From Escherichia phage vB_EcoS_FP: a stretch of DNA of 43,757 nt. The notes under the pieces were generated by a model. The model was not told where the DNA came from and made no database searches. It was given only the letters and a program-made list of their open reading frames with translations. The stretch lies in the sequence record MT682706.1. One strand, given 5' to 3'. Of this stretch, positions 7,515 to 42,930 are shown piece by piece; position 1 is the first letter of the stretch, and every line of letters begins with the position of its first letter. Both the position numbers and the translations under genes were made by a program.

Positions 7515-8768
7515 ATGGTTAAGACAGACAGCTACGCCAATATCTTTCTAGGCGGCAGTGATGGTAGTGAGATTTACGGGAGTTTGCAGAACCAAGCCCC
7601 TACAATTCTGGCTTCGCTTTATGCGGATAATGCGCTGGTGCGTCGAATCATCGACACAATCCCGGAAACAGCACTAGCGGCAGGATTCCACATTGATGGT
7701 ATTGATGATGAGCCTGCATTCTGGTCGCGCTGGGACTATCTAGAACTAACAAAGCACATCAATGAAGCCTGGTCGTGGGCTAGATTGTTCGGTGGAGCAG
7801 CAATTGTTGCTATCGTTAAGGACAATAGAGCGCTAACAAGTCCGGCCAGAGAAGGTGCTGAGCTTGAAACCGTTCGCGTTTACGACCGTACTCAAGTAAA
7901 AGTACAAACTCGCGAAGAGAATCCCCGTAACGCACGTTTTGGCAAGCCACTAACCTATCGCATCACCACTAATGAGAGCGATATGTTCTATGATGTGCAC
8001 TACACCCGAATTCATATCATCGATGGCGAGCGAATTCCTAACGTAATGCGTCGGCAAAATGATGGCTGGGGCCGCAGCGTTCTATCCAGTGACATTCTTG
8101 ACTCAATCAAGGATTACACCAACTGCGAACGACTTGCTACGCAGTTACTGAAGCGCAAGCAGCAGGCGGTGTGGAAAGCCAAAGGTCTTGCTGAATTGTG
8201 TGATGATAGCGAGGGATTTGGTGCCGCAAGGTTGCGCCTAGCACAGGTTGATAACAATAGCGGCGTTGGTCAGGCGATTGGCATTGACGCGGAATCTGAA
8301 GAGTATAGCGTTCTAAACTCTGATATTGGTGGGATTGATGCGTTCCTGGATAAGAAGTTTGACAGAATTGTTGCGCTGAGCGGTATTCATGAGATTATCC
8401 TGAAGAATAAGAACGTTGGCGGCGTATCATCAAGTCAGAACACCGCATTGGAGACATTCCATAAGCTAGTCGATCGCAAGCGTAACGCTGAACTACTGCC
8501 GATTCTCGGGTTCCTGATTCCGTTCATTTCAGACGAGCAGGAATGGTCAGTGGAGTTTAATCCCCTAGCGCAGGAATCAAGTAAGGATAAGGCCGAGATT
8601 CTTGAGAAGAACGTAAACAGTATTGCGGCACTAATTGCAGCTGGCGCTATGGATACCAGCGAAGCCCGTGACACACTACGCGCTATCGCACCAGAAGTTA
8701 AGATTGGTGATGGTGATATTGAGTCCACACAAAAAGAACCAGTAGAGGAGGTTGTAATTAATGAGTAA
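7515..8768 (+). CDS. portal protein
   Basis: 417 aa; position after TerL; start at ATG 7515 with GGAGA RBS (the 7488 ATG lies inside the terminator hairpin). Confidence 0.8.
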   Translation: MVKTDSYANIFLGGSDGSEIYGSLQNQAPTILASLYADNALVRRIIDTIPETALAAGFHIDGIDDEPAFWSRWDYLELTKHINEAWSWARLFGGAAIVAIVKDNRALTSPAREGAELETVRVYDRTQVKVQTREENPRNARFGKPLTYRITTNESDMFYDVHYTRIHIIDGERIPNVMRRQNDGWGRSVLSSDILDSIKDYTNCERLATQLLKRKQQAVWKAKGLAELCDDSEGFGAARLRLAQVDNNSGVGQAIGIDAESEEYSVLNSDIGGIDAFLDKKFDRIVALSGIHEIILKNKNVGGVSSSQNTALETFHKLVDRKRNAELLPILGFLIPFISDEQEWSVEFNPLAQESSKDKAEILEKNVNSIAALIAAGAMDTSEARDTLRAIAPEVKIGDGDIESTQKEPVEEVVINE

Positions 8769-20645: not shown

Positions 20646-20692
20646 AGTGTAGAATGTTACAAATGATCAAAACAAACATGAGGCTTTGTGAT

Positions 20693-23600
20693 ATGGCTGA
20701 AGATATTAAGATTTATGGTGCTAAGGGTGGTAGTCAGAAGCCGCATCAACCGGTGGAGCAGGAAGATAACCTCATTTCACTAAACAAGGTTAAGGTGTTG
20801 CTTGCTGTCGCTGACGGAGAGGTTGATTCAAACTTCTCAATGAAGGATTTATACCTTGCTGACGTTCCGGTGCAAAACCAGGATGGTAGCTACAACTACG
20901 AAGGTGTTCGCGCTGAGTTCCGCTCTGGTACGCAGTATCAGGATTACATCGCTGGGCTTGACGGTGCTAACTCAGAGATTCAGGCTTCCAGAGAAATCAC
21001 GAACGATACCCCATACATCATTGCGGTTAACAATACTCAGCTATCAGCGATTCGTGTAAAGCTATATTGGCCTAGACTGGTTAAGCAAGAAAGCAATGGA
21101 GACCTGAACGGAACAACCTGCGAATATGCAATTGATCTTTCTGTTAATGGTGGCGCTTATCAGGAATATACTCGAGGAGTTGCTAACGGGAAGACAACTA
21201 CAGGTTACGACCGCAGCATTCGTGTAAACCTTCCAGCTGAATTTGATAGCGCATTGGTTCGCATCCGTAAGATTACAGCAGATTCGACGAGTAGCACATT
21301 GGTTAACGGGATGCAGATTACAACCTATCAGGAGGTAATCGACGCTAAATTCCGCTATCCGCTTACAGCTCTTGTTTACGTTGAGTTTGGCTCTGACCTT
21401 TTTCCTAACGGTATCCCGACAATATCTATCAAGAAGCGATGGAAGTTGATTCAGGTTCCTACAAACTACGACCCTGAAACAAGAACTTACAGTGGCACAT
21501 GGAATGGTCTATTTAAAATGGCATGGTCAAATAACCCTGCATGGGTTCTTTATGACTTAGTGACAAACCGCCGCTACGGTCTTGATCAGAGAGAGCTGGG
21601 TGTAGAGATTGATAAGTGGGGTCTGTACGAAGCTGCGCAATTCTGTGACCAAATGGTTCCAGATGGAAAAGGCGGCATGGAGCCGCGCTACCTGTGCGAT
21701 ATGGTTGTGCAGAATAAAGTTGAGGCTTACACGCTAATTCGTGATATCTGTTCGATCTTCCGTGGCCTGACTTTCTATGATGGCGAAAAGATTGGTATCG
21801 TAGTTGATAAGCCTCGTAATCCATCTTACATCTTCACGAATGATAACGTTGTAAACGGATTGTTCAGCCGCACCTTTGCCAGTGATAAAAGCCTTTACAC
21901 CACGGCAAACGTTCAGTTTGATGATGTTGAGAACAACTATCAGCAGGATGTTGAACCAGTATTCGAATTAGAGGCAACTCGTCGTTTTGGATTTAACCCT
22001 GTAGATTTAACTGCGATTGGATGTACTCGCAGAAGTGAAGCAAACAGACGTGGCAGATGGCTCCTGAAAACCAACCTAAGAAGCGAAACTATTAGCTTCA
22101 CCACTGGGTTGGAGGGCATGATTCCGATGATTGGCGAGGTGATTGCGGTCAATGACGCGGCATGGTCTAGCAACTATCAGCTAAACCTTTCCGGTCGTAT
22201 TGAATCAGTTCAGGGGTTGCAGGTTTTCACCCCATTTAAAGTTGACGCAGCGCCTGGTGACAGAATTCTCCTGAACAAGCCTGACGGAAGTCCAGAAGCG
22301 AGAACTATTGCAAGCGTATCTGATGATGGTAGAACAATAAACCTTAACACTGCGTTCAGCTTTGTAGCCCAGCCTGATACTGTATTCGCAATTGATAAGG
22401 ATAACCTCGCGCTTCAACAATATGTTGTGACAGGGATTCAAAAAGCAGATTCTGACGGTTCGGATTCATTCCAGTACACAATTACTGCTGTAGAGTATGA
22501 CCCGAACAAGTATGACGAGATTGACTACGGCGTTAACATTACTGACCGTCCTACTTCAATTGTGGAACCTGACAGATTGTCTCCACCTGATAACTTAACA
22601 GTATCAAGCTACAGCAAGGTTGTTCAGGGTTTATCGGTTGAGACGATGGTAATTGGTTGGGATAAAGCGCCATACGCTAAAACATACAATGTTCAGTGGA
22701 GGAAAGAGAATGGCAACTGGATTAACGTACCAAGAACAGCTAGTACAGAGGTTGATATCGAAGGTATTTACGCAGGAATCTATGACGTTAGGGTTCGCAG
22801 CGTATCAGATACTGAAAACGTGTCTGCCTGGTCTGACATTGTAACGGTATCACTAACTGGCAAGATTGGCCGCCCATCTGCGCCTACTGCTATCACGGCA
22901 TCAACTGATGAAGTATTTGGTATTCGTGTTAAATGGGGATTCCCTGATGGATCCGGTGATACTGCTTACACTGAACTTCAGCAGGTTCCTGATAATGGCG
23001 ATGGTACTTACAATCCTGATAACGCAAGTTTGCTTACGCTGCTGCCTTATCCAGCCTATGAATACTGGCATACTCCAATTCAGCCAGGTAAGGTTATCTG
23101 GTATCGCGCAAGATTGATTGACAGAATAGGTAATACGTCTGATTGGTCTAGTTTCGCAAGAGGCATGAGTACTGACGACGCAAACATTATCAATGATTAC
23201 ATCAAGGTTGATATTGAAGGCTCGGAAGGATTCAAATACCTCGAGCAGAATGCGATTCAAAAGAATCAGGACATTCAGAACCAGGCAGAATCAATCCTTG
23301 AGAACGCATTAGCTAATGACACTGATGTTCGTCGCATGACTAAGGAGAACGGCAAGCGTAAGGCTGAATATGTTCAGGCAGTGAATCTCATAGCTGATGA
23401 AACTCAGGCGCGCGTAGAGGCTCTCACAGCCCTTAAAGCACAGATAGATGATGAAGTTGTAGCGTCGATTACAGAAGTTCAGACTGCATTAGCCACAGAG
23501 ACAGAAGCAAGAACTACTGCAGACACGGCTCTATCAGCAAGACTTGGAGAAAACGAGGCAGCTCTAAACCAGAAGTTAGACGCATTCTCTAATGCCACAT

Positions 23601-24064
23601 CAACTGGCGTGCAATACGGAATTAGTCTTGGCCTGAAATACAATGGTCAGACTTATTCATCCGGCATGAGCATGGAGCTAGTTGGCACTGGTGGTAATGT
23701 TCGTAGTCAATTCATTTTTGACGCAAACAGATTCGCGATCAGTAACGGCATTGGTTCTGGCTCCGGTCAGTGGCAGCTCCCCTTCGTTGTCGAGAACGGA
23801 AACGTAATCATCCGAAGTGCGGTAATTGGTGATGGCTCAATTACTAACGCGAAGATTGGTGACTTTATTCAGTCCAGCAACTACGTAGCAGGAAGCACGG
23901 GGTGGAGGATTGATAAGTCTGGTAACGCTGAGATTCGCGGTAAACTGTACGCCAACAGTGGTGAGTTCGCATTCAACGGAATAAATAATACGGTACAGAT
24001 TAACGGAAACGGAATCACGGTTAACTTACCTGGAGGGGGAAGAGTTGTGGTAGGTACGTTCTAA
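20693..24064 (+). CDS. central tail fibre / host specificity protein (lambda J-like)
   Basis: About 1123 aa from ATG 20693; position after M-L-K-I; size and domain layout. Confidence 0.85.
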   Translation: MAEDIKIYGAKGGSQKPHQPVEQEDNLISLNKVKVLLAVADGEVDSNFSMKDLYLADVPVQNQDGSYNYEGVRAEFRSGTQYQDYIAGLDGANSEIQASREITNDTPYIIAVNNTQLSAIRVKLYWPRLVKQESNGDLNGTTCEYAIDLSVNGGAYQEYTRGVANGKTTTGYDRSIRVNLPAEFDSALVRIRKITADSTSSTLVNGMQITTYQEVIDAKFRYPLTALVYVEFGSDLFPNGIPTISIKKRWKLIQVPTNYDPETRTYSGTWNGLFKMAWSNNPAWVLYDLVTNRRYGLDQRELGVEIDKWGLYEAAQFCDQMVPDGKGGMEPRYLCDMVVQNKVEAYTLIRDICSIFRGLTFYDGEKIGIVVDKPRNPSYIFTNDNVVNGLFSRTFASDKSLYTTANVQFDDVENNYQQDVEPVFELEATRRFGFNPVDLTAIGCTRRSEANRRGRWLLKTNLRSETISFTTGLEGMIPMIGEVIAVNDAAWSSNYQLNLSGRIESVQGLQVFTPFKVDAAPGDRILLNKPDGSPEARTIASVSDDGRTINLNTAFSFVAQPDTVFAIDKDNLALQQYVVTGIQKADSDGSDSFQYTITAVEYDPNKYDEIDYGVNITDRPTSIVEPDRLSPPDNLTVSSYSKVVQGLSVETMVIGWDKAPYAKTYNVQWRKENGNWINVPRTASTEVDIEGIYAGIYDVRVRSVSDTENVSAWSDIVTVSLTGKIGRPSAPTAITASTDEVFGIRVKWGFPDGSGDTAYTELQQVPDNGDGTYNPDNASLLTLLPYPAYEYWHTPIQPGKVIWYRARLIDRIGNTSDWSSFARGMSTDDANIINDYIKVDIEGSEGFKYLEQNAIQKNQDIQNQAESILENALANDTDVRRMTKENGKRKAEYVQAVNLIADETQARVEALTALKAQIDDEVVASITEVQTALATETEARTTADTALSARLGENEAALNQKLDAFSNATSTGVQYGISLGLKYNGQTYSSGMSMELVGTGGNVRSQFIFDANRFAISNGIGSGSGQWQLPFVVENGNVIIRSAVIGDGSITNAKIGDFIQSSNYVAGSTGWRIDKSGNAEIRGKLYANSGEFAFNGINNTVQINGNGITVNLPGGGRVVVGTF

Positions 24065-24067
24065 AAC

Positions 24068-24092
24068 AAAAGCCCCGAAAGGGGCTTTATAT
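24068..24092. terminator. bidirectional intrinsic terminator
   Basis: AAAGCCCCGAAAGGGGCTTT between convergent genes. Confidence 0.7.
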
Positions 24093-25028
24093 TTAATACA
24101 TATCAGGAAGGTAAGGAAGTGGCATTGATATTGTTACGTCAGGCCTATTTCCTATCTCGTATCTAACAATCCTTGATCCCGTGCCAGATCTAACATACCC
24201 ATTGCTCATTACGATTCCTTTGTTTCTCAACTCCTTATATGCTCGTATTGCCCTTGTGTTAAACCCACATCTGAGTATTGGGAAGTAAGATTCGCCAATG
24301 TACTGATTGCTACCTGATAGGTTTATGAATCCAGAAACAACCAATGGCCTAGTTACGGTCGACAGCGTACAAACACCATTTGAATTAAATATGTTTAATC
24401 CAGGACCTGGCGTTGGTGCTACCATCTGAAATATAAGAAGGTCCATAGTTACACTTCCTGGAGTGTCACCAGTATCTTCCGTATTTATGTTTGTGCATAC
24501 CAGCTGGTTACTACCATTGTATTCAACTGATACGCCGGAGTTGTTCCACTTTCCAAACGGTATACCATAAATTGGCAGTGTGTATGTGTTGGTGAAAGAT
24601 ATTCTCTGAGCAAACTTGCATACTAATAGCCTGTCAGTGGTGGTTATAGAAGTAAAGTCAGTACTGTCAGTAACGTAAATACCCTGGCCTGTAGATGCTC
24701 TTAGTACCTCAACAACAGTACCAGAAAATTGAGTTATACGGTCAGAATATCCATTCTCATAACCAATCGATATTGTTCCGCTTGATGCTGTTGATGAGAA
24801 TCCATTTATGTAGTAAATCTCAACACCTCTATCAAGCTCAAATGAGTATGCGCCATTGTTAGGTATAAGGAACCTTGACGCTCCTTCATTACCCTGAATT
24901 GAAAAATTTTTGCTAAATCCACCACTGGAGACGTTGAAGTTACCAGCGAAGTTTAAAGCACGCATCCCTGCGGTTATTGTCATTGGCTTTCTTCCGTCAT
25001 TGAGGTCTATATAAATACCTTGAGTCAT
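24093..25028 (-). CDS. putative receptor-binding protein (311 aa)
   Basis: Minus-strand gene convergent with J; start ATG overlaps lipoprotein stop (TAATG) with AAGGAG RBS; Ser/Thr/Gly/Asn-rich. Confidence 0.5.
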   Translation of the reverse strand: MTQGIYIDLNDGRKPMTITAGMRALNFAGNFNVSSGGFSKNFSIQGNEGASRFLIPNNGAYSFELDRGVEIYYINGFSSTASSGTISIGYENGYSDRITQFSGTVVEVLRASTGQGIYVTDSTDFTSITTTDRLLVCKFAQRISFTNTYTLPIYGIPFGKWNNSGVSVEYNGSNQLVCTNINTEDTGDTPGSVTMDLLIFQMVAPTPGPGLNIFNSNGVCTLSTVTRPLVVSGFINLSGSNQYIGESYFPILRCGFNTRAIRAYKELRNKGIVMSNGYVRSGTGSRIVRYEIGNRPDVTISMPLPYLPDMY

Positions 25029-25258
25029 TAATTCCACTCCTTAGAACCATAATCACGAACAGATCCGCTGGAGCCTTTAATACCATCGTAGCGAATGTCA
25101 ATTTCACCAGCCGAAACTACTACGCCACCTTTCCATTTAGCTACGCACACGCCGTTTGAGGACGCTGCACACCAACCATCCGGGCGGGGAGCTGATGAAC
25201 AACCAACCGTCATGATTACTGCCGCTGCGATGATTGGTAATTTGATTAAGTTAGTCAT
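25028..25258 (-). CDS. lipoprotein, candidate superinfection-exclusion (Llp/Cor-like)
   Basis: Signal peptide plus lipobox MTVGCSS; 76 aa; adjacent to putative receptor-binding protein gene; driven by phage promoter module. Confidence 0.6.
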
Positions 25259-25282
25259 TTTTAAATCCTTAGTAAGTGCGTT

Positions 25283-25344
25283 TCGTTTCGATGAACTAAT
25301 AATACAACCGTCGGTGCGGAATGTCTTTAGCTATTCGTGCTATT
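25283..25344 (-). promoter_or_regulatory. phage-specific promoter-like module driving lipoprotein/RBP operon
   Basis: Minus strand: AATAGCACGAATAGCTAAAG ... TATTATTAGTTCATCGAAACGAAACG. Confidence 0.5.
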
Positions 25345-25720
25345 GTATACGCGTAACCAATGTAACTCGATGTATACAATCTCATCCGCGAAAAATGATA
25401 TACGCGCTGTTACGGCAATTTACGCATTGGTTACATTAAAATATCTATATATATCAACCTTTTACTCTTATTATTATTATTATATATATTACTGTGTATA
25501 TCATGTAACTACTTCTATAGAGTGTTCCGGTTATAATTTTAATATCATGTGGATTTATACAGTATTGCGTGGCAGCTATACCAATGCACCCCCTGCAAGA
25601 AACGGTATACACGATATACACGATGGTTACATTGAGCTATAGCTGGGCTGAGATGCCAAAAAGCGTAACTAGTACCAATACCTACACGGAATTACAGTAA
25701 TTCGCACGTAAACTTAATAA
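25345..25720. repeat. AT-rich non-coding control region B (homologous to region A); (TTA)n microsatellite; TACGCNNTGGTTACAT iteron-like sites
   Basis: No ORF with coding signal; shared blocks with 247-540. Confidence 0.7.
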
Positions 25721-27787: not shown

Positions 27788-27840
27788 AAATAGCACGAAT
27801 TGCTAAAGCAATGTGGGATAGCTGATGTATAGTTACCCCA
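27788..27840 (+). promoter_or_regulatory. phage-specific promoter-like module
   Basis: AATAGCACGAATTGCTAAAG, 22 nt, TATAGTTACCCCATCAACAACGAACGAGG. Confidence 0.55.
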
Positions 27841-31525: not shown

Positions 31526-31591
31526 TGTGTAAAGTCTCCATTTGTAAAATAGCACTAATTGCTAAGTTGGATTGTAGCATCTTTCAGGCAT

Positions 31592-32559: not shown

Positions 32560-32612
32560 AAGGCACTATACATAATGCACAGTGCCATTGTTTATCAATT
32601 CGTGCTATTTCC
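32560..32612 (-). promoter_or_regulatory. phage-specific promoter-like module (minus strand)
   Basis: Minus strand: AAATAGCACGAATTGATAAA, 22 nt, TATAGTGCC. Confidence 0.5.
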
Positions 32613-33087
32613 CTTGCTCTTTAGCTTTTCGTGCTGCCTCGTTAGCGGCCTTAATCTTGCGCCATGATCGACACTCTGGCTTCGTGGCTAACTCAGCCTC
32701 AGTGACCACACGCAGCATGTGACGTTTTTTGCAACGTAGTGTAAGTGGCTTTCCGTTGCCATCGAATTGCAAATCTGGTCGGCAGAATGTAGCGCGAAAG
32801 CCTTCTCCATTTCGTTTGTAGTAGTTGTGCGACAACTGAGCACCGCGTGCAGAAATCATACCACGCTTAAACCATTCTTCCACGGCCTGTGGTGTTACCT
32901 TTAATTTCTTTGCCATATTTGCCTTTGTGCCGAAGAAATCAAGAACAATTTCCAGCCGCGCACGTAAACCCGCCCTTACCTCATCTTTCAAAACGTAGTA
33001 ACCTGAAGGTCGTTTTCGCTGCTTTTTATCTTCAGTGCGGATGGTTCCGTTATTGCCGTTAATGGTTCTCTTGTCGACTGTATTCAT
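32605..33087 (-). CDS. HTH DNA-binding protein (Cro/YdaS-like), basic
   Basis: HTH block AKKLKVTPQAVEEWFKRGMISARGA; ATG 33087 with GAGGTAATAAG RBS. Confidence 0.55.
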   Translation of the reverse strand: MNTVDKRTINGNNGTIRTEDKKQRKRPSGYYVLKDEVRAGLRARLEIVLDFFGTKANMAKKLKVTPQAVEEWFKRGMISARGAQLSHNYYKRNGEGFRATFCRPDLQFDGNGKPLTLRCKKRHMLRVVTEAELATKPECRSWRKIKAANEAARKAKEQGK

Positions 33088-35183: not shown

Positions 35184-35599
35184 ACATTACAGACAAAGTT
35201 GATTACATTGAGTTTTACTCTGGACCGGTTAAGTCGTGTCCGAAAGAGGATGACGAACAAATCTTTTGCTCTGATTGGGTTAAGTATAACTACCCAGATA
35301 TGGTATTTTTCCACTGCGTGAATGAGGGAAAGAAAACCATTGGTCAAGCAAGAAAGGACCAGGCTAAAGGTTTGCTTAAAGGGGTTTCTGACTGCTTATT
35401 CCTGATACCTGAATCTCTGCGTGGCAAATACCCTTTCGGAGCCATAGAGCTAAAGAGAGCAGGAAAAACCCAGGCAAGTCCAGTCAGCAATGAACAGAAG
35501 TCCTTCCTGAAAAGCGTGAGAGAATCAGGGGGTTTCGCTGCCGTGGCTTACGGACGAGAAGGTTTTCTTGCAGCATTCAAAGAAATGATTTCAAAATAG
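35180..35599 (+). CDS. VRR-NUC domain nuclease
   Basis: 139 aa; AIELKRAGKTQAS...Q.KS block; ATGA overlap with helicase. Confidence 0.6.
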   Translation: MNITDKVDYIEFYSGPVKSCPKEDDEQIFCSDWVKYNYPDMVFFHCVNEGKKTIGQARKDQAKGLLKGVSDCLFLIPESLRGKYPFGAIELKRAGKTQASPVSNEQKSFLKSVRESGGFAAVAYGREGFLAAFKEMISK

Positions 35600-35645
35600 C
35601 ACGAATTGCTAAAGAGATTTCGCAGGGATGCGATATAGTTACTCC
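35595..35645 (+). promoter_or_regulatory. phage-specific promoter-like module
   Basis: AATAGCACGAATTGCTAAAG, 22 nt, TATAGTTACTCCATCGAAACGAAACG. Confidence 0.55.
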
Positions 35646-38482: not shown

Positions 38483-39039
38483 AAATGACTAAATTATTTA
38501 TCCTTAACGGACCGGCTGGAGTTGGCAAGGACACTATCGCAGATGTTATGCTCGAGTTGGGTGTTGTTGATGGGAAAGTTTCATTCAAGTCACCAATGTT
38601 CGATGTAGCCAGGGGGATGCTATCAAAGGATGAATTTGATTGGTTTATTGAGAACTACAACAACCGAGACGAGAAAGAAAAGCATCAAGAGATACTTGGC
38701 GGTAAAAGCATTCGAGAATTTATGATTTGGATTAGCGAGTCTGTAATGAAGCCAGTCTTTGGTGATTATGTTTTCGGTAAAAGGCTAGCCCAGTCACTTG
38801 GTGATGGTTGCTACATTTGCGCTGACGGTGGGTTTGCTAGCGAGATTAAGCCACTGATCGACACTGGTGTTGAGGTCACGTTAATCAGATTGCATAGGGC
38901 AGGGTACAAATTTGATGGCGATAGTCGCTCATACATTCATGGGGTGTGCGCAAGAGAAATTGATGTTCGTGTTGTTGATGGTGATATTGATGGAACATCA
39001 GCATTGGTAAGGCACGTAATAAATAGCACGAATTGCTAA
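38479..39039 (+). CDS. P-loop kinase (dNMP kinase-like)
   Basis: Walker A GPAGVGKDT; ATG 38479 with ACGGAG RBS; runs through a promoter motif, ending NSTNC. Confidence 0.6.
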   Translation: MKMTKLFILNGPAGVGKDTIADVMLELGVVDGKVSFKSPMFDVARGMLSKDEFDWFIENYNNRDEKEKHQEILGGKSIREFMIWISESVMKPVFGDYVFGKRLAQSLGDGCYICADGGFASEIKPLIDTGVEVTLIRLHRAGYKFDGDSRSYIHGVCAREIDVRVVDGDIDGTSALVRHVINSTNC

Positions 39040-42449: not shown

Positions 42450-42496
42450 ATTATATCAACGACCGCTTATAATTCATTATCAATTTGTGCTATTTA
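42450..42496 (-). promoter_or_regulatory. phage-specific promoter-like module (minus strand) for ATPase gene
   Basis: Minus strand: AAATAGCACAAATTGATAA, 22 nt, TATAAT, with the -10 overlapping the first in-frame ATG at 42451. Confidence 0.5.
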
Positions 42497-42869: not shown

Positions 42870-42930
42870 GTTTCGATGAGATTAATATACATGAAAAGCC
42901 CCGAAGGGCTTTAGCAATTCGTGCTATTGC
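42870..42930 (-). promoter_or_regulatory. phage-specific promoter-like module (minus strand) containing a terminator-like hairpin in its spacer
   Basis: Minus strand: AATAGCACGAATTGCTAAAGCCCTTCGGGGCTTTTCATG-TATATTAATCTCATCGAAACGAAAC. Confidence 0.55.

Follow-up and report, generated by a model that had tools for sequence, protein, structure and literature searches.

In T5, T1 and phi80, small lipobox proteins are encoded beside the host-recognition genes. These systems pair a receptor-binding protein (RBP) at the siphovirus tail tip, such as T5 pb5 (oad), with a lipoprotein that disables the receptor from the periplasm (Llp in T5; Cor in T1, phi80 and N15), the receptor being FhuA, a TonB-dependent transporter. 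Other phages depend on LptD, as established through resistant lptD mutants for JeanPiccard (Bas02), AugustePiccard (Bas01), TheodorHerzl and Oekolampad (Bas18, Dhillonvirus), and likewise genetically for OzMSK; E. coli lptD mutants that block JeanPiccard and OzMSK carry the deletion Y658-Y678::H or the change L394-V396::Y. In purified form the Oekolampad RBP is soluble and attaches to LptDE from the extracellular side, and its structure was solved on open LptDE (PDB 9RPT/9RPW/9RQI); the family fold comprises two lectin-like beta-sandwiches with tip loops. The lipoprotein Rtp45 of phage Rtp has been seen by cryo-EM on the periplasmic side of LptDE (PDB 9RPS, solved on LptDE(M)). In the available part of the paper on that structure, LptDE binding and a structural clash are shown, a Cys30-Cys38 disulfide is described, and blocking is attributed to steric displacement of an LptD loop, in contrast to the allostery of T5 Llp; that part reports no in vivo exclusion assay for Rtp45. 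The genomic position was described in 2021 as the 'bona fide RBP locus downstream of gpJ'.

We analysed a minus-strand gene pair in Escherichia phage vB_EcoS_FP (MT682706.1), using the 43,757-nucleotide sequence in full (hereafter the window). The phage belongs to the Drexlerviridae, subfamily Braunvirinae, near Veterinaerplatzvirus and MSK. Comparison with the systems above indicates, with a probability of roughly 0.9, that the pair serves this T1-like phage as a host-recognition cassette of the LptD type, formed by an RBP and an LptD-blocking lipoprotein. Phage modules of this kind have already been characterised and published, and the present copy is an ordinary one.

Organisation of the gene pair

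The initial annotation described a minus-strand lipoprotein gene followed by a 311-aa gene, overlapping at TAATG and convergent with a J-like gene, and this arrangement is borne out in full. Both open reading frames are present (Table 1), and direct reading places the TAA stop of the lipoprotein gene (25030-25028) and the RBP ATG (25028-25026) with one base in common, AAGGAG lying 8 nt 5' of that ATG. A mechanical list of open reading frames begins the RBP at a GTG at 25037, giving 314 aa; this start was rejected and the length set at 311 aa, because the homologues all begin at the ATG (M-A/T-Q-G-I-Y-I-D). The stop codons of the RBP gene (24093) and the J gene (24064) are 29 nt apart on opposite strands, and the hairpin between them has an 8-bp stem, T-runs on both strands, and a distance of 4 nt to either stop.

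Table 1. Positions of the gene pair and associated features in the window.
Feature	Position	Strand	Basis
Predicted superinfection-exclusion lipoprotein precursor, Rtp45 type, 76 aa	25258-25028	minus	Pfam PF24052, PDB 9RPS_D, lipobox
RBP, 311 aa, DUF6453 / Rtp44 / Bas02_0024 type; predicted receptor LptD	25028-24093	minus	Pfam, PDB 9RPT chain C, homologue identity
J-like central tail-tip (fibre) protein, 1136 aa, presumed RBP carrier	20654-24064	plus	PHROG 31, Pfam
Last ~43 codons of J, travelling with the RBP cassette	23936-24064	plus	TheodorHerzl and Oekolampad comparisons
Translational coupling site: AAGGAG 25042-25037, 8 nt, TAATG 25030-25026	25026-25042	minus	Direct sequence reading
Two-way intrinsic-terminator-like hairpin AAAGCCCC-GAAA-GGGGCTTT	24069-24088	both	Terminator scan
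Promoter-like module of the gene pair	25343-25277	minus	Repeat search, alignment to relatives
Inverted-repeat box ATAGCACGAATAGCTA	25343-25328	minus	Part of promoter-like module
-35-like AAGACA	25327-25322	minus	Followed by 17-nt spacer
-10-like TATTAT	25304-25299	minus	Part of promoter-like module
Leader TCATCGAAACGAAAC	25294-25280	minus	Part of promoter-like module
Rtp52-like helix-turn-helix protein, candidate regulator	32605-33087	minus	97% identical to Rtp52

Against JeanPiccard, the RBP gene shows 90 synonymous and 14 nonsynonymous changes, a pN/pS of 0.05; the lipoprotein gene has a value of about 0.2, and RBP values overall range from 0.05 to 0.22; these ratios indicate that both genes are under purifying selection. 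The low pN/pS, together with Pfam matches to DUF6453 (E 6e-118) and PF24052 Phage_lipoprotein (E 8e-35), both well over their cut-offs, identifies them as real genes and not chance reading frames. An Rfam scan of the window returned tRNA only, with no known RNA element at the locus. Among E. coli chromosomes, a distant DUF6453 match was found in just 3 of 5426 genomes, and the pair is therefore essentially a phage cassette.

JeanPiccard (bas02_0024/bas02_0025) and Veterinaerplatzvirus vB_EcoS-12210I (gp07/gp06) have the two genes in the same order, with identical lengths (311 and 76 aa) and an identical TAATG overlap. JeanPiccard also has the same box upstream, but carries a Dcm-like methyltransferase gene between two box copies that the window does without, and many synonymous differences separate the two. 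Rtp (rtp44/rtp45) has the same locus and intergenic layout with no methyltransferase. The closest relatives for the rest of the genome are OzMSK/MSK, at about 90% nucleotide identity, although their RBP allele is different. A stop/start overlap of 1 nt is annotated in Rtp, JeanPiccard, TheodorHerzl, AugustePiccard and OzMSK, whereas the Oekolampad genes are 2 nt apart. The antisense position of the RBP gene had been thought unusual; it is not, since the layout is alike in all six relatives compared (these five phages and Oekolampad) and was described in 2021.

Relationship to the LptD-dependent phages

The two proteins had been proposed to be an exclusion lipoprotein and an RBP, and homology searches with both, which the initial annotation had recommended, lead to structures on LptDE: 9RPT for the 311-aa protein and 9RPS for the lipoprotein. 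The larger protein is rich in Ser, Thr, Gly and Asn, as noted earlier (38.9% in sum). Its residues 4-291 cover profile positions 1-290 of the 291 in DUF6453, and residues 2-311 align with chain C of 9RPT, the Oekolampad RBP (E 8.9e-39); the reconstructed chain is 100% identical to bas18_0025 when checked against the Oekolampad genome. Identity is 98.7% to the vB_EcoS-12210I protein, 97% to that of LptD-dependent JeanPiccard (about 10 of 311 residues differ), 87% to TheodorHerzl, 80% to AugustePiccard and 79% to Rtp44, which is a sister allele, and declines to 32-41% for the Oekolampad and OzMSK alleles; the N-terminus is conserved across alleles. Support for LptD as the receptor comes from structure for the 32%-identical Oekolampad protein, and from genetics for phages with RBPs at 97%, 87% and 80% identity.

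Oekolampad has the same protein families, likewise placed after J, and shares the receptor class, at 32% (RBP), 33% (lipoprotein) and 36% (J backbone) identity. Its RBP differs from that of the window by insertions and deletions in loops, among them the one that holds Gln299, a residue named in the 9RPT paper, and this loop is absent from the window allele. With this absence and an identity of 32%, the details of LptD contact may differ from those in Oekolampad. Judged by sequence homology, the window protein would adopt the two lectin-like beta-sandwiches and tip loops of its family; a single-sequence AlphaFold2 model of it has a mean pLDDT of 28.7, too low to serve as a check.

For the 76-aa protein, the reported signal peptide and lipobox are present: the n-region holds a single Lys, the core is hydrophobic, and the lipobox T-V-G-C is followed by a Ser at +2. 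The mature form begins C-S-S at Cys20 and has about 57 aa (about 6 kDa). Residues 1-76 align with 9RPS chain D at 84% identity (E 9e-41), and this chain equals the rtp45 translation when checked against the Rtp genome. The Rtp45, JeanPiccard and AugustePiccard homologues are 84-86% identical to it (JeanPiccard, 84%), and G19-C20 of the lipobox, Cys30 and Cys38 are invariant among seven homologues. The lipobox, Cys30/Cys38 and size of about 6 kDa agree with the features named in the Rtp45 paper, and we count the published mechanism in favour of this reading.

By that mechanism, the lipoprotein would be exported, acylated at Cys20 and, with Ser at +2, directed to the outer membrane, into its inner leaflet. 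In this place it would bind the LptDE translocon on its periplasmic side and push a hairpin up the LptD lumen, as shown for the 84%-identical Rtp45, displacing extracellular loop 4 and so preventing the phage RBP from binding. The infected cell would be spared superinfection, and progeny would not be wasted on infected cells and debris. The RBP, made through translational coupling, would be soluble and mounted on the C-terminal end of J, from where it would insert into the extracellular side of LptD, the predicted terminal receptor on the next host. We infer the receptor, virion incorporation, expression timing and exclusion for vB_EcoS_FP from sequence likeness to these relatives. Host range and resistance could then be predicted: lptD mutations in loop 4 and loop 11 should block this phage.

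Two further readings concern the receptor. Strong divergence among the RBP alleles of the family leaves some room for a target other than LptD, or for a second receptor of the kind described in a 2026 preprint, where AugustePiccard requires NupG besides LptD by way of a J domain. Either is very improbable here, given that the RBP is so close to that of LptD-dependent JeanPiccard, that the DUF6453-type alleles tested so far all map to LptD, and that the window J is without the 36-aa insertion of AugustePiccard J, matching Rtp and JeanPiccard at that point. Alternatively, the lipoprotein could be a Cor/Llp-type FhuA blocker unrelated to the receptor of vB_EcoS_FP, which would suit its size class, its lipobox and a place beside host-recognition genes as in T5, T1 and phi80. 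Its 84% identity to an LptDE-bound protein makes this scarcely credible, and searches with the lipoprotein found only PF24052 in Pfam (E up to 0.1) and only Rtp45 among PDB sequences (E up to 1), though an FhuA-Llp structure is deposited there. The RBP similarly matched DUF6453 and a sub-threshold DUF5689 in Pfam (E up to 0.1) and 9RPT alone in the PDB (E up to 1), so that these sequence searches detected no relationship of either protein to pb5, Llp or Cor. The initial analogy with Llp and Cor consequently stands as a likeness of function, a tip RBP with a lipoprotein that disables its receptor, and fails as one of sequence, of receptor (LptD, not FhuA) and of mode (steric, not allosteric).

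A different reading makes the 311-aa protein a membrane protein or moron for host takeover that never enters the virion. It draws on PHROG 1265 ('membrane protein', category moron/host takeover), on RefSeq records that give the homologue the same label, and on a promoter-like box that the gene shares with non-structural genes. Gel-band proteomics of related O157 phages identified seven virion proteins, the RBP homologue not among them, an absence to be expected of a tip protein present in few copies, and not informative. No separate RBP is resolved in the in situ structure of T1, and we found no direct virion evidence for a DUF6453-type RBP reported in the proteomics papers on related phages or the T1 structure paper. 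Against a membrane protein, the Oekolampad homologue was soluble when purified and bound the extracellular face of LptDE, and no long hydrophobic segment is seen in the window sequence; the RBP allele, moreover, correlates with receptor specificity across families, and the C-terminal end of J is transferred together with the RBP gene. We regard the host-takeover reading as very improbable, and the 'membrane protein' label of RefSeq and PHROG as misleading. Under the preferred reading, an RBP with an LptD-blocking lipoprotein, the genome can be confidently annotated as that of a predicted LptD-dependent T1-like phage.

Exchange of the cassette between lineages

The J protein belongs to PHROG 31 ('central tail fiber J'), has the Pfam domains FNIII-A_GpJ and Phage_Tail_Tip, and shares 97% identity with Rtp43 and 96% with the J proteins of JeanPiccard and OzMSK. 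When 19-28 kb of the window is compared with TheodorHerzl (Dhillonvirus), nucleotide similarity is confined to 23936-25249. The last 38 aa of J are near-identical between the window and TheodorHerzl. Oekolampad differs in this stretch, although the rest of its J has 98% identity to that of TheodorHerzl. Nucleotide identity to Rtp changes over the same interval: it is about 91% ahead of it, 68-80% within about 23900-25300 (68-72% at the lowest, inside the RBP gene) and 94% beyond. As these two independent comparisons agree on the borders, the exchange unit as read from the alignments is the last ~43 codons of J with the RBP and lipoprotein genes, at about 23936-25250/25300. These parts pass jointly between phage lineages, and the RBP would presumably dock at the C-terminal end of J. 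Such a placement finds indirect support in the last ~40 aa of J, which co-vary with the RBP allele, and in the conserved N-terminus of the RBP. The same borders define a swap unit for retargeting, made up of the J end and both genes.

Across Drexlerviridae whose RBPs reach just 39-41% identity, the lipoprotein remains 70-86% identical. One could suppose, as two linked proposals, that the Bas02/Rtp-type RBP engages LptD in a mode or state unlike that of Oekolampad, and that the lipoprotein cross-excludes all LptD-targeting alleles; we hold this combination to be doubtful.

The upstream box and its candidate regulator

A repeated phage promoter module had been reported ahead of the pair, and the repeat is indeed there: when up to 2 mismatches are allowed, the window contains ATAGCACGAATTGCTA 10 times, where 0.04 occurrences would be expected. 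The module lies 85 nt upstream of the lipoprotein ATG, and most copies of the box, which can also be written ATAGCACGAAT(T/A)GCTA, stand 5' of replication and recombination genes, including those for Erf, primase and helicase. A promoter-like box at this place is kept in all four Drexlerviridae relatives aligned (Rtp, JeanPiccard, AugustePiccard and OzMSK); the segment from box to ATG is conserved in them, and the DNA further upstream is unrelated. We infer promoter activity for the module. A minus-strand transcript of both genes would start at the module, about 25343-25299, and end at the hairpin held in common with the J operon.

A simple sigma-70 reading was rejected, given that TTGCTA and the -10-like hexamer are separated by about 22 nt and that the copies show no conservation at the true -35 position. 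The conserved block has more the look of a site for protein binding. The 'early-type' label given to the promoter is plausible, since copies of the box also stand ahead of the Erf, primase and helicase genes. The box carries an inverted repeat that resembles a regulator site, and a phage regulator may therefore control expression, which would then not be simply early.

That regulator is probably the Rtp52-like protein of the window, which shows a weak Cro-like helix-turn-helix match under the Pfam cut-off. Literature searches for the box string AGCACGAATTGCTA did not find it, and those for Rtp52 and for DUF6453 gave nothing relevant. Rtp52 and its ~10 inverted repeats are reportedly covered in the Rtp genome description by Wietzorrek and colleagues from 2006, and the window box would be a site of this kind. 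The gene pair may thus be switched on alongside the replication genes through an inverted-repeat box bound by the Rtp52-like regulator. Rtp52 is annotated in GenBank as a 'putative transcriptional regulator', and a search of the Rtp genome that allowed up to 2 mismatches matched the box 12 times.

Gene pair and its published class

On the minus strand of the vB_EcoS_FP genome, a gene for a 76-aa lipoprotein is followed by one for a 311-aa receptor-binding protein (RBP), facing J, the J-like central tail-tip gene. The lipoprotein stop and the RBP start have one base in common within TAATG (25030-25026), and AAGGAG lies 8 nt 5' of the RBP start. A GTG start at 25037, taken from a mechanical ORF list, was rejected, every homologue having an ATG start. 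The lipoprotein N-terminus comprises a single lysine, a hydrophobic core and a lipobox closing at Cys20, with Ser at +2, which is consistent with outer-membrane sorting by the Lol pathway. Both ORFs are real genes, since their scores against Pfam DUF6453 (RBP, E 6e-118) and PF24052, 'Phage lipoprotein family' (E 8e-35), lie far over the cut-offs and their differences from relatives are mostly synonymous (pN/pS about 0.2 in the lipoprotein gene and, in the comparison with JeanPiccard, 0.05 in the RBP gene). The initial annotation described the pair, its coupling, the lipobox, the RBP composition (Ser, Thr, Gly and Asn make up 38.9%) and the convergence with J accurately.

Features of the window, with position and strand
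Feature	Position	Strand	Basis or remark
Lipoprotein ORF, 76 aa	25258-25028	minus	ORF reading
RBP ORF, 311 aa	25028-24093	minus	ORF reading; start fixed by homologues
J-like tail-tip gene, 1136 aa	20654-24064	plus	convergent with gene pair; preceded by lambda L, K and I homologues
8-bp GC-rich hairpin, T-runs on both strands	24069-24088	both	between J and RBP stop codons
Module of lipoprotein-RBP pair	85 nt 5' of lipoprotein ATG	minus	box and promoter-like elements
Box copies	2215-2230, 3150-3165, 27790-27805, 31549-31564, 35596-35611, 39023-39038	plus	match to ATAGCACGAATTGCTA
Box copies	25328-25343, 32593-32608, 42478-42493, 42912-42927	minus	match to ATAGCACGAATTGCTA
AT-rich non-coding segment	25299-25498		between divergent lipoprotein and recombination-gene operons
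Rtp52-like HTH protein	32605-33087		97% identical to Rtp52
tRNA-Arg (anticodon TCT)	4244-4321	plus	found by ARAGORN and Rfam
Lateral tail fibre gene, 848 aa	29009-31555	minus	

Sequence searches of the PDB returned a single match for each protein: 9RPS chain D for the lipoprotein (E 9e-41, residues 1-76) and 9RPT chain C for the 311-aa protein (E 8.9e-39, residues 2-311). The former structure shows Rtp45, the superinfection-exclusion lipoprotein encoded by phage Rtp, in complex with Shigella flexneri LptDE(M), while 9RPT, 9RPW and 9RQI are LptDE with the RBP of phage Oekolampad (Dunbar et al., PNAS 2025, PMC12685063). Checked in the genomes, the 9RPS chain is the rtp45 translation and that of 9RPT matches Oekolampad bas18_0025 at 100% identity. 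The RBP is 98.7% identical to that of the Veterinaerplatzvirus group (vB_EcoS-12210I), 97% to JeanPiccard (Bas02), 87% to TheodorHerzl (Bas14) and HK578, 80% to AugustePiccard (Bas01), 79% to Rtp44, 41% to OzMSK and 32% to Oekolampad; the lipoprotein is 86% identical to that of AugustePiccard, 84% to Rtp45 and JeanPiccard, 70% to OzMSK and 33% to Oekolampad. Small in-frame deletions in lptD, which encodes an E. coli outer-membrane protein, block JeanPiccard, AugustePiccard, TheodorHerzl and Oekolampad (Maffei et al., PLoS Biol 2021, PMC8594841), OzMSK has the same LptD dependence (Black et al.), and the correlation of locus with receptor is upheld at larger scale (2026 preprint). The pair agrees with the published LptD-type RBP/Rtp45-type lipoprotein class in every sequence-level criterion. 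Judged by sequence, the locus is an ordinary member of this already known class, because its products are homologous to the solved proteins and its RBP is closely related to those of LptD-dependent phages such as JeanPiccard. The homology searches and the LptD-dependent relatives thus support the earlier reading of the pair as exclusion lipoprotein and RBP. The genome itself is that of a Braunvirinae-type T1-like phage, with nucleotide identity of about 90% to OzMSK/MSK and 89% to Veterinaerplatzvirus records.

An analogy had also been drawn with Llp and Cor. The working logic is indeed that of the T5 pb5/Llp and Cor systems; however, the pair belongs to neither family, and receptor class and blocking mechanism differ. 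Permissive-threshold Pfam and PDB sequence searches of both proteins gave no Llp, Cor or pb5 relatives, returning only DUF6453/9RPT, PF24052/9RPS and one sub-threshold DUF5689 match for the RBP.

Rtp45 occupies a site between LptE and LptM at the periplasmic face of LptDE, where it and the base of LptD strand 6 join in a beta-sheet. It carries a Cys30-Cys38 disulfide, and its hairpin reaches up the LptD lumen and raises extracellular loop 4 by as much as 20 Å, a state incompatible with RBP binding (PMC12685063). In the homologue alignment the vB_EcoS_FP lipoprotein keeps the lipobox, Cys30, Cys38 and the C-terminal S-x-E-W; by analogy with its relatives, it would block LptDE from the periplasm as Rtp45 does. 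The RBP of Oekolampad penetrates far into an open state of LptDE from the extracellular side, its tail-proximal part being disordered (PMC12685063), and the RBP studied here would likewise enter LptD from outside; the loop bearing Oekolampad Gln299 is missing from it.

In public resources the RBP family (NC_049813 gp07; PHROG 1265) is labelled 'membrane protein' (in PHROG under the category moron/host takeover), which is misleading; most records call the homologue 'hypothetical protein', and a receptor-binding protein is annotated in OzMSK alone. Of 5426 complete E. coli genomes, just three (NZ_CP036177, 2502518-2503468; NZ_CP038336; NZ_CP172145) carry a distant DUF6453 gene (64-66% nucleotide identity), presumably in prophages, and lambdoid phage mEp515 encodes a 62%-identical protein; the cassette is therefore not restricted to virulent T1-like phages. 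DUF6453 genes 37-80% identical to coliphage alleles also occur under 'Campylobacter phage' in seven records and under Acinetobacter and Aeromonas in one record each, in genomes of T1-like size; these records may be mislabelled as to host or represent contaminating coliphages.

Exchange cassette and the proposed joint with J

Between 19 and 28 kb, the sole nucleotide similarity to TheodorHerzl lies at 23936-25249, and identity to Rtp passes from about 91% in J to 68-80% at about 23900-25300 and back to 94% in the intergenic region. The borders agree between these two independent comparisons, and the unit of exchange therefore comprises the J end, the terminator hairpin, the RBP gene and the lipoprotein gene. 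OzMSK has the J backbone in common with vB_EcoS_FP (98%, residues 1-900) and a different RBP allele, nucleotide similarity ending at 24131. The putative promoter of the pair belongs to the recipient backbone rather than to the exchange unit.

We infer that the RBP is attached to J, because all RBP alleles keep the N-terminal ~25 residues, 7/7 phages keep the extreme J C-terminus (LPGGGRV-VG), and the last ~40 residues of J track the RBP allele, not the J backbone. Thus J of TheodorHerzl and Oekolampad are 98% identical over residues 1-900 and 77% over the last 100, while the last 38 residues of TheodorHerzl J nearly equal those found here. This link is not new, since receptor-specific C-terminal segments of J have been described (2026 preprint). 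AugustePiccard J carries a 36-aa insertion within its coiled-coil-like part, aligned to about aa 930 of the present J (about 23440) and absent from vB_EcoS_FP, Rtp, JeanPiccard and OzMSK; NupG dependence of AugustePiccard has been ascribed to a J domain (2026 preprint). In sequence, the present J resembles that of LptD-only phages.

Promoter-like module and recurrent box

The module of the pair reads, in order, ATAGCACGAATAGCTA (25343-25328), AAGACA, a 17-nt spacer, TATTAT (AAGACA to TATTAT, 25327-25299), TCATCGAAACGAAAC and a Shine-Dalgarno sequence. Its box, ATAGCACGAATTGCTA, includes the inverted repeat TAGCA-N5-TGCTA; with up to 2 mismatches, this 16-mer has 10 copies in the window against 0.04 expected, and 12 matches in Rtp. 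About 20 nt after each window copy is a TATAGT-like hexamer, often followed by the leader CATCGAAACGAAAC. Copies stand 5' of the genes for Erf recombinase, primase (followed by the lateral tail fibre gene), helicase and the exclusion lipoprotein, and of small unknown ORFs; none lies inside the morphogenesis operon, which begins with the terminase genes and extends to J. A literature search with the box string found no match. In Rtp, JeanPiccard, AugustePiccard and OzMSK the module is kept as far as the start codon of the lipoprotein gene, with unrelated DNA further upstream. Box distribution and conservation fit the proposal of a separate, phage-specific and non-late promoter module for the pair, of putative activity and timing.

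The conserved block looks like a regulator site, because it sits upstream of the -35 position and the -35 sequence itself varies between copies. Rtp52 was reportedly proposed to be a regulator with some ten inverted repeats of this kind, and the box is probably the binding site of the Rtp52-like HTH protein. Early synthesis is expected of exclusion proteins in general (stated in a T5 paper, which cites Decker et al. 1994 for Llp), and by analogy would be expected of this lipoprotein; early production of a low-copy tip protein through coupling is no obstacle to assembly. The antisense layout, which the initial annotation had called unusual, is common to every relative examined and hence not anomalous here.

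A DNA methyltransferase gene lies directly 5' of the lipoprotein gene in JeanPiccard (4015-4704), AugustePiccard (4014-4703) and OzMSK (8065-8757), flanked by two box copies; vB_EcoS_FP (25259-25345) and Rtp are without it and have one box there, which suggests that gene cassettes are won or lost via recombination between boxes. The AT-rich segment is 94% identical to Rtp, above any 200-nt block in the cassette (68-80%) or J. Runs of (ATA)n/(TAT)n and several short palindromes occur in it, and divergent promoters or another control element may be located there.

The tRNA-Arg is also annotated in related Veterinaerplatzvirus records. The lateral tail fibre gene shares a strand with the primase gene and lies 3' of it, and a box variant is found exactly where the tail fibre gene begins; the N-terminal 350 aa of the fibre product match tail-fibre PHROGs and the C-terminal 490 aa a PHROG labelled 'haemolysin-type calcium binding'.
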